DNA from: Candidatus Poribacteria bacterium
Lineage (GTDB): Bacteria > Poribacteria > WGA-4E > GCA-2687025
Reading direction: 5' to 3'
Assembly: GCA_963665845.2 (NCBI GenBank)
Contig: OY762492.1
Span: 1,472,001 to 1,536,000, forward strand
DNA: 64,000 nucleotides
The notes beneath the pieces were generated by a model. It worked only from the letters and a program-made list of their open reading frames with translations, searched no databases and was not told where the DNA came from. Made by a program: the position numbers and the translations under genes. Below, in pieces: positions 61,296-61,505 of the stretch; the stretch's first letter is position 1, and each line of letters opens with the position of its first letter.

Positions 61296-61492
61296 AGGAG
61301 TAGGGCAAGGGGGCTGGATCTCCCCACTTATATACTGTGCAGAGCAAAGCATCTGTTCGGAGCATCCAGCCCATTTTGCCGTTTGCGCGAGCTTCCCTAC
61401 TCCCGCTCGGCGCCGCTGCGAAGCAACGCGCCCAAGACGGTCTGGAGTCTCACCGCGCTACCCCTTAAGTATGCGCTTACTCTAGGGGCAAG
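61296..61492 (-). ncRNA. Putative bridge RNA in the IS110 left end
   Basis: 5' hairpin plus two internal-loop stems holding segments that match the target (CCAGACCGTC; GCGGGAG) and donor (ACAGATGCT; ATATAAG) junction sequences. Confidence 0.72.
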
Positions 61493-61505
61493 ATCATCAT
61501 ACAAA

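Follow-up and report, generated by a model that had tools for sequence, protein, structure and literature searches.

A predicted IS621-type bridge RNA in an IS110-group element inserted at an NTS/dRS3 repeat of a Candidatus Poribacteria genome

The window analysed here is a stretch of 64,000 nucleotides from a Candidatus Poribacteria bacterium (contig OY762492.1, positions 1,472,001 to 1,536,000). Close to its end it carries an IS110-group insertion sequence, copy A, on the minus strand. Our analysis indicates that the left end of this element encodes an IS621-type bridge RNA of about 190 nt, which would pair through one loop with the target, an NTS/dRS3 repeat, and through the other with the joined ends of the element. 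We put the probability of this reading at about 0.88. Positions refer to the whole stretch, segments are read on the minus strand, and copies of the element were compared within the 3.98-Mb assembly.

Results

Guide segments of the left-end RNA match the target and the element's own ends

The element, the predicted RNA and the flanking target comprise the following features.

59952..61503, minus strand: IS110-group insertion sequence, copy A (1552 bp; ends from the alignment of 10 copies and the uninterrupted repeat)
61304..61491, minus strand: predicted bridge RNA gene with 5′ hairpin, target-binding loop and donor-binding loop (193 bits to our covariance model R1; fold; pair counts)
61459..61490, minus strand: 5′ stem-loop of the RNA, UGCCCCU..AGGGGUA (helix 1, 100% paired in 10 copies)
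61434..61445, minus strand: left target guide, CCAGACCGUC plus UU (identical to the flank CCAGACCGTC; UU corresponds to the target core TT)
61409..61432, minus strand: inner hairpin of the target-binding loop (helix 3, 98.9% paired in 10 copies)
61398..61406, minus strand: right target guide, GCGGG plus AG (core), then UA (handshake-type); reverse complement of TA-CT-CCCGC, the post-exchange right junction
61311..61372, minus strand: donor-binding loop with its closing stems, 9 bp and then CUCC/GGAG (folds; compensation in copies C to J)
61348..61356, minus strand: left donor guide, ACAGAUG plus CU (matches the right end ACAGATA-CT with one G.T wobble)
61325..61333, minus strand: right donor guide, AUAUA plus AG, then UG (pairs with CT-TGTAT with one U.G wobble)
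59952..59960, minus strand: right end of the element, donor-left ACAGATA plus core CT (the same in 9/9 full-length copies)
61504..61516, minus strand: left target flank CCAGACCGTCA plus core TT, the left half of the NTS repeat (flanks compared across copies)
59938..59951, minus strand: right target flank, hairpin CCCGCGTAAGCGGG of the NTS/dRS3 repeat (motif compared with PMC11893778)

The ten bases CCAGACCGTC occur in the RNA at 61436-61445 and again in the flank at 61507-61516, where ATT follows. This identity had been recognised in the original prediction, which placed the RNA segment at 61435-61444, one position off. GCGGGAG at 61400-61406 is, as predicted, the reverse complement of CT plus CCCGC at the right junction (59947-59953), and the right target guide GCGGG-AG accordingly pairs with CT-CCCGC. 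Both donor guides were found where they had been expected, each with one wobble, and pair with the joined ends: ACAGATGCT at 61348-61356 corresponds to the right end ACAGATACT (59952-59960), and ATATAAG at 61327-61333 lies opposite CT plus TGTAT. Together with its handshake bases the right donor guide reads AUAUA-AG-UG, with CA-TT/CT-TGTAT as its DNA partner. The left donor guide of the sister copies is ACAGAUAC; in copies C to J the donor guides are exact over 8 and 7 nt, whereas the window copy needs one wobble per guide.

In published bridge RNAs, the left guides pair with the bottom strand and so have the sequence of the top strand, to which the right guides pair; the core is included in all four (PMC11208160). 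The top strand is cut directly after the core, and two 'handshake' bases follow the right guides (PMC11208158). Polarity and register of the guides in the window RNA agree with this scheme.

The probability of chance matches was estimated from 5000 dinucleotide shuffles of the 188-nt RNA. A 10-nt left-flank match did not occur in any of them, a 7-nt right-target match was obtained in 222 and a 6-nt exact donor-left match in 357. The donor-right match (4 nt exact, with wobble) was reached by 4066 of the 5000 shuffles and is not significant alone. All four guide matches jointly were reproduced by 0/5000 shuffles.

The structure of the RNA is conserved in distant IS110 loci

Folding, covariance-model matches and stem covariation in relatives all bore out the IS621-type layout of 5′ hairpin, target loop and donor loop that had been read from the sequence. 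Folding of the left end, a check suggested at the outset, gave an energy of -101.9 kcal/mol for this region versus -80.6 ± 4.7 kcal/mol for shuffles (z = -4.5). The closing stem of the donor loop is a perfect 9-bp helix, as claimed, formed by GGGCTGGAT (61364-61372) and ATCCAGCCC (61311-61319). In copies C to J the donor-loop stem is GACCGG/CCGGUC, a compensated change. Within the 10 copies of this genome the proposed structure is 96.4% paired.

The covariance model R1 was built on these 10 copies and recovers all of them plus one remnant. With default filters, R1 gave full-length matches directly upstream of distant IS110 genes, on the strand of the gene, at 3/50 loci. With the filters off, full-length matches were obtained in 17/30 loci, adjoining the transposase gene upstream and on the same strand; transposases at the matched distant loci show 28-47% protein identity. 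In all relatives found, the structured RNA sits in the left end, and five sequences folded separately gave the same three-part architecture. Four diverse sequences were then compared in an alignment that was fitted to the structure of the model, which favours that structure: 92.3% of cells were paired and compensatory changes occurred in 25/45 pairs, including 8/10 pairs of the 5′ stem-loop. This level was reached by 0/500 shuffles, while slid controls were 39-47% paired with at most 5 such pairs. A MAFFT alignment of the distant RNAs misaligned the 5′ half and was excluded from the counts, and an alignment of 13 sources made with the model remained unused because antisense partial matches had contaminated it. 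The predicted stems are conserved in homologs, and the RNA has the organization of a bridge RNA: a 5′ stem-loop and then two internal loops, each closed by a stem, with covariation supporting their conservation.

Guides change together with ends and flanks

Alignment of the genomic copies for guide covariation, as had been suggested, revealed a doubly compensated change in the right donor guide: copy B has the end TACAT and the guide AUGUAAG, with two complementary changes compared with TGTAT and AUACAAG in copies C to J. The window copy represents a wobble intermediate between the two. Among the distant relatives, locus L055, on a contig of 45% G+C, sits in the same NTS repeat; it carries ACAGAUG in both the guide and its own end, and both of its donor guides are adjusted to its own ends.

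For the target guides, guide and flank were compared by eye across the relatives; L042, L040 and L037 were left out because their target loop was misaligned, and L057 was unclear. The left target guide ends with CGUCAUU, UGUCAUU or CGUCAUA where the flank reads (C/T)GTCATT at nine loci (L036, L043, L055, L056, L039, L041, L051, L038 and L048). A second subclade (L053, L050, L046, L059 and L062) has quite different guides, which match the respective flanks over 7-10 nt, and L035 has the guide GUACCCAC opposite the flank GTACCCAC. The right target guide was read over the five bases adjoining its AG: in 7/9 relatives with both parts readable these are exactly complementary to the five bases that follow LD-CT, and the remaining two relatives match at 4/5 (L050) and 3/5 (L046) positions. 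Eight different right flanks are represented overall.

At L056, L041, L040 and L038, where the left flank is CGTCATT, the right flanks start with GCGAG or GCGAA and end with ..GCAAT(C)C. Possibly, these flanks represent further Ssn-related hairpin motifs.

The target is an NTS/dRS3 repeat

NTS/dRS3 is the hairpin repeat of Ssn nucleases and was first described in Neisseria (PMC11893778). NTS denotes a 28-nt motif beginning CGTCATTCCCGCG (PMC11893778), dRS3 the 20-nt palindrome ATTCCC-N8-GGGAAT (PMC11893778, PMC1797815). The flanks of the window copy join to CGTCATT plus CCCGCGTAAGCGGGAATC, with a T in this copy where the NTS motif asks for A or C, and the target repeat conforms to the NTS/dRS3 motif. 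A new target specificity had been proposed for the element. The match between guide and flank is confirmed, but the target itself is not new: it is a described repeat and a known prophage integration site (PMC11893778, PMC7058167, PMC1797815).

The hairpin CCCGCG-N-AAGCGGG occurs 826 times in the genome and is preceded by TT in 804 cases, mostly within GTCATT. Genome-wide we counted 174 exact NTS sites, 385 sites with at most one mismatch and 868 sites with the dRS3 pattern; the abundance of the repeat is about 830-870 copies. A CRISPR array was ruled out as explanation of this abundance, since the copies are scattered and the repeat is the published NTS motif. The 23-nt core of the repeat is present 710 times here and 163 times in a genome of the same genus. 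Another genome of the family has 10 copies, three genomes from other families of the phylum have 1-8 each, and the other 170 have none.

In the uninterrupted repeat CGTCATT directly abuts CCCGCG; the insertion therefore separates ATT from CCC, with no more than a single T ambiguous at the junctions. The first ten guide bases match exactly at 4/10 occupied versus 41/822 unoccupied repeat sites (binomial P of about 0.001, hand arithmetic). The other six occupied sites have 2, 2, 2, 3, 4 and 4 mismatches, those with four being the sites of copies D and G.

Many of the NTS repeats are embedded in a longer repeat of about 170-200 bp, with outer ends that form inverted copies of each other (CTGACCT..AAAGTTGGGACAT). 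It occurs genome-wide and, in the window, at 61517-61600 and 59860-59937. Upstream, about 85 nt of it are common to copies A, B, E, H and J, and its downstream half to copies C, D, F, G, H and I. The longer repeat looks like a miniature inverted-repeat element built around NTS.

Additionally, the genome contains a 105-codon GIY-YIG frame (PF01541, 55 bits; contig 1, 2298881-2299099, L109) with NTS matches within about 400 nt on both sides. A repeat-gene-repeat layout has been described for ssnA (PMC11893778), and the GIY-YIG frame flanked by NTS repeats, a candidate Ssn-like gene, would correspond to this layout.

The left target guide probably skips one base of the target

In the relatives the left target guide ends with ...GUCAUU and is contiguous with the target GTCA-TT. 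In 8/10 copies of this genome it reads ...GUC-UU, and the A of the target (A7) has no partner. When this one DNA base is skipped, the guide matches 10 bases plus the core. The offset of about 1 nt that had been suspected at this guide is real, as the guide lacks one base that relatives have, and judged by this comparison it is derived. The base deletion is common to copy A and copies C to J, subfamilies that differ by 21-29% in DNA, and hence predates most insertions. Copy B, whose gene is broken, has GUCAUA in common with three relatives, but otherwise its guide corresponds to no repeat site. An ungapped register with the core unpaired was considered but appears less probable, since relatives place UU on the core. 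The likeliest reading appears to be a tolerated bulge at the left target guide.

Junction cores are unequal and the joined ends would form a promoter

The left junction carries TT in 10/10 copies of this genome and the right junction CT in the 9/9 full-length copies. In the relatives the right junction is CT in all 14 with a readable right end, and the left junction varies between TT and CT with the flank. If the top strand is cut behind the core and top strands are then exchanged, exactly this pattern of TT on the left and CT on the right would result, whereas an unbiased double-strand exchange would give both arrangements. Top-strand integration has been reported in a preprint (10.1101/2025.10.25.684509) and agrees with the junction cores; single-strand copy-and-paste excision has been reported for IS621 (preprint 10.64898/2026.08.31.748434). 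The guide bases at the first core position, U and G, could wobble with C or T partners.

Two hexamers in the ends of the element complete each other at the circle junction:

59967..59972, minus strand: TTGACT, -35-like hexamer in the right end (circle junction in silico)
61496..61501, minus strand: TATGAT, -10-like hexamer in the left end (about 5 nt upstream of the start of the RNA's 5′ hairpin)

In silico joining of the right and left ends produced a circle-junction promoter in 9/9 copies. The sequence TTGACT-17 nt-TATGAT agrees with the consensus at 10/12 positions in 8/9 copies, and 9/12 positions agree in copy B. A split promoter has been described for IS621 (PMC11208160).

The window copy is broken, whereas sister copies encode intact recombinases

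The transposase gene of the window copy is a pseudogene:

60073..61278, minus strand: transposase pseudogene with DEDD/RuvC-like and Tnp domains (frameshifts near 60985 and 60490)

Its reading frame falls into three pieces through two frameshifts, one of which splits the DEDD domain itself, and an intact, expressible transposase is lacking. The left non-coding end of copy A (225 nt) is longer than the right one (121 nt) and contains the RNA, as is characteristic of the IS110 group (PMC11208160). The left junction of copy A is ...CCAGACCGTCATT followed by TGTATGATG..., the right junction ...ACAGATACT followed by CCCGCGTAAGCGGGAATC.... All copies share the left junction GTCATT followed by T(G/A)(T/C)ATGAT, and all nine full-length copies the right junction ACAGATACT followed by CC(C/T)G.

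Ten related copies are present in the genome: copy A, copy B with 91% identity, the seven copies C to I with 71-79%, and copy J, which is cut off after about 460 nt. Open transposase frames of about 400 codons are found in the five sisters C, E, F, G and H. Genes are broken in 4/9 full-length copies, by one stop in D, a split in I and frameshifts in A and B. A +2 insertion (60979-60990) is common to the frames of A and B.

Copies A and B are 9% diverged despite the common +2 frameshift, and B (contig 1, 745150-746714) has the doubly compensated change of left end and donor guide. These are hints that the broken A/B subfamily continued to move by means of a recombinase supplied in trans.

Copy J (contig 1, 469909-471600, L092) has kept the left end with the RNA and the first approximately 70 transposase codons. 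It then continues in frame into DNA methyltransferase-like sequence with a DPPF motif, giving a 507-codon open frame. A degenerate solo remnant resembling the bridge RNA (contig 1, 2788108-2788309; L099, 1501-1702) scores 87 bits to the covariance model; it has neither the inner hairpin of the target loop nor the first bases of the element, and no transposase gene follows downstream. Searches of the order (8 genomes) and the phylum (176 genomes) found no close relatives beyond the own genome, and a single-protein scan of the genome contigs yielded three distant matches only.

Contigs of four public runs were mapped on 59700-61800. They contain one extra base at 60493, in a G run, relative to the assembly in all four runs (1 contig per run); with or without this base the transposase gene of copy A stays broken. 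A base at 60831 is absent from one contig per run. Both differences could be strain variants or an assembly homopolymer error. No empty site or circle junction was visible in this region in the contigs, which are fragmented by the repeats. A joint skipping 1553 nt was read as another copy of the repeat, since its sides measure 18-24 nt and it has an extra letter.

The product of copy C (398 residues; contig 1, about 3697413-3698986) was used to characterize the recombinase. It matches PF01548 (E 5.4e-18, residues 15-156) and PF02371 (E 5.8e-17, residues 200-283), as well as the structures of IS621 (8wt6, E 6e-27) and ISCro4 (9t56, E 2e-28). Its GID, E, D..D and ESG motifs align with the solved transposases, and RESGKS is aligned to YESGSS of IS621; the identity of the catalytic serine is taken from PMC11208158. 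The sister copies encode intact DEDD plus Ser recombinases related to IS621. In the transposases of this family, residues from about 320 to 398 of copy C (window 60073-60310) correspond to a C-terminal tail of about 80 residues, acidic and of low complexity, which is rich in Ser/Ala, contains the internal repeat EESGSSDAS and is without counterpart in IS621.

The window copy itself is dead, but the family to which it belongs has sisters that look alive. A programmable recombinase ortholog, as originally predicted, would be represented by the five intact sisters and not by the window copy with its two frameshifts; programmability itself is suggested by the natural covariation of guides with ends and flanks.

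Discussion

Observations that weigh against a functional bridge RNA

Several observations weigh against our interpretation, besides the alignment that favours the structure and the guide tallies read by eye. Across the 10 copies of this genome compensatory changes occur in only 4/45 pairs, because the copies are close. In the consensus fold of the RNA alone, CUCC pairs with GGAG in the target loop, which would occlude the right target guide. The covariance-model search that had been suggested found the RNA in relatives with our own model R1, but an Rfam scan of 59800-61800 with E values up to 10 gave only chance-level matches and no bridge RNA. Among public sequencing runs no RNA-type run with the sequence was found, and expression of the RNA is a prediction. 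In the canonical register, with UU on the core, the left target guide matches 1/7 target bases (hand count), so that a bridge RNA needs a 1-nt DNA bulge here, a feature not known from the bridge RNAs in the literature covered. In copies B and D, whose transposase genes are broken, the left target guide has no exact match among the repeat sites (best sites with 2 and 1 mismatches, respectively), and in B it also agrees poorly with the copy's own flank. For L035 an empty target was predicted but not found in its 81%-complete genome (0 exact and 3 one-mismatch sites versus 9 in the reversed control). Finally, with its transposase broken, activity of the window copy appears unsupported.

Alternative explanations

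The register problem raises the possibility that the bridge-RNA family is a fossil here, in which the 1-nt deletion in the guide disabled targeting and copies multiplied earlier or by other means such as recombination between repeats. The match of 1/7 in the canonical register, the broken genes in four of nine full-length copies together with the truncated tenth copy and the eleventh, a remnant, and the occupied sites of copies D and G with 4 guide mismatches would all be expected in this case. On the other hand, the deletion is common to the subfamilies A and C to J, which are 71-79% identical, and is hence older than at least eight insertions, which lie at separate sites and have distinct flanks. 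Five copies keep open frames of about 400 codons, eight keep an identical guide, and occupied sites are enriched for exact ten-base matches upstream of the skipped A (4/10 versus 41/822). We consider a fossil family improbable, if still the strongest competitor of a working bridge RNA.

Still less probable is an ordinary structured 5′ leader, e.g. for translational control, that has captured an NTS fragment or converged on it and has no guide function. Such a leader would account for the hairpin that covers the ribosome-binding site just before the ATG and would be compatible with the want of an RNA run containing the sequence. Furthermore, the right guide GCGGGA equals the 3′ arm of the repeat's hairpin and the left guide the left flank of the repeat, so that the target loop resembles a copy of the repeat with its 5′ arm replaced. 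The donor loop, in contrast, matches the element's own ends, which are unrelated to the repeat. Relatives in unrelated sequences have other guide bases at the same positions of the RNA, and these match their own flanks; the end and guide changes in B and L055 are compensated, and the recombinase is a relative of that of IS621, whose RNA mechanism is solved (PMC11208158). Together these points make a simple leader very unlikely.

An element of the IS1111 or seekRNA type, with the guide RNA in the right end and a left structure unrelated to targeting, can practically be dismissed: the IS110 family does contain both groups (PMC11208160), but a left end of 225 nt against a right one of 121 nt follows the pattern of the IS110 group, all relatives found have the conserved structured RNA on the left, and the recombinase matches IS621 and ISCro4, which are IS110-group bridge-RNA elements.

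Proposed mechanism of transposition

For a functional bridge RNA, transposition of an intact copy might proceed as follows. Excision would join the right and left ends and thereby create the sigma-70-type promoter TTGACT-17-TATGAT, which would drive the RNA. In the next step, a recombinase tetramer and the RNA would unite the circle junction ACAGATA-CT-TGTAT and the target ACCGTCA-TT-CCCGC, and the top strands would be cut after the second core base and exchanged. The result would be the TT of the target at the left junction and the CT of the donor at the right junction, the pattern seen in every copy. The first core base could be C or T, as the left target guide would offer U and the right guides G for wobble pairing. 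Most probably, pairing of the left target guide, which has no partner for A7, would need one bulged DNA base. The window copy, having no recombinase of its own, could at most be moved, or lend its RNA, in trans.

Comparison with known systems

Bridge RNAs have been predicted in 85.7% of IS110-group elements (PMC11208160), and an IS621-type bridge RNA in an IS110-group element is of a known kind. The closest described system is IS621 of Escherichia coli (PMC11208160, PMC11208158, PDB 8wt6). Both elements have a DEDD plus Tnp recombinase (E 6e-27) and an RNA in the left end on the strand of the gene, with a 5′ stem-loop followed by target and donor loops. All four guides include the core; the left ones run in the sense of the top strand, the right ones antisense to it, and two bases after each right guide fit the handshake. 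The promoter is split between right and left ends in both, and the natural target is a repetitive extragenic hairpin. The reconstructed donor resembles that of IS621, as had been noted: 11/14 positions are identical by hand count to the donor oligo in PMC13396178. In contrast to these likenesses, protein identity is low, with a match at the profile level only. IS621 has CT in both cores, whereas here the target has TT and the donor CT. The left target guide of 10 nt skips one target base here, the target is the NTS/dRS3 repeat, the recombinase has the extra C-terminal tail of about 80 residues, and the element is known from sequence alone.

ISPpu10 and ISPpu9 of Pseudomonas putida (10.64898/2026.03.19.712850; PMC12288879) also combine an IS110 element and bridge RNA with one conserved repeat, and in ISPpu10 a GC-rich stem-loop lies beside the paired bases of the repeat. 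There the stem-loop is a 5′ extension of the target, whereas in the present element the right half of the target consists of the hairpin, which the right guide would read. Neisseria filamentous prophages (Nf1/MDA) possess an IS110-family recombinase gene and use ATTCCC-N8-GGGAAT as landing site (PMC7058167; PMC1797815). These are phages, and their site contains CT within another dRS3 subtype. A bridge RNA for the dRS3 prophages of Neisseria is not reported in the literature searched. In the phage collection no close relative of the recombinase was found: 17 records were all below 60% identity, and none among the matches listed came from Neisseria. For CazIS110-1 of Caloranaerobacter azorensis (10.1101/2025.10.25.684509), copy-out followed by top-strand integration would leave junction cores such as these; that is a bench result with matched cores, whereas here the course is deduced from unequal cores of natural copies. 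Literature linking bridge RNA and dRS3, IS110 and Poribacteria, or IS110 and SsnA was not found in the library searched, which includes only a minority of subscription journals. What is specific here is the NTS/dRS3 target, the skipped base in the left target guide and the unequal cores.

Implications for IS110 elements and NTS/dRS3 repeats

Tentatively, and at slightly less than even odds, we extend these findings to a whole clade of IS110 elements specialised on Ssn-associated NTS/dRS3 hairpins in unrelated bacteria. Its bridge RNAs would read a (C/T)T core via wobble bases, the left target guide would skip one base in the family studied here, and the insertions, owing to their differing target and donor cores, would record only top-strand inheritance, the genomic footprint of top-strand copy-and-paste transposition.

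As a catalogue entry, the element is one more IS110 orthologue. Bridge recombinases are under development as programmable genome-writing tools, so natural variants are of use in showing which guide geometries are tolerated. The family offers a left target guide that seemingly works across a one-base bulge, and a first core base that may differ between donor and target. The unequal cores are a natural strand marker that agrees with the bench evidence for top-strand-only integration. Finally, the family connects two literatures, those on bridge-RNA elements and on the NTS/dRS3 repeats of Ssn nucleases.

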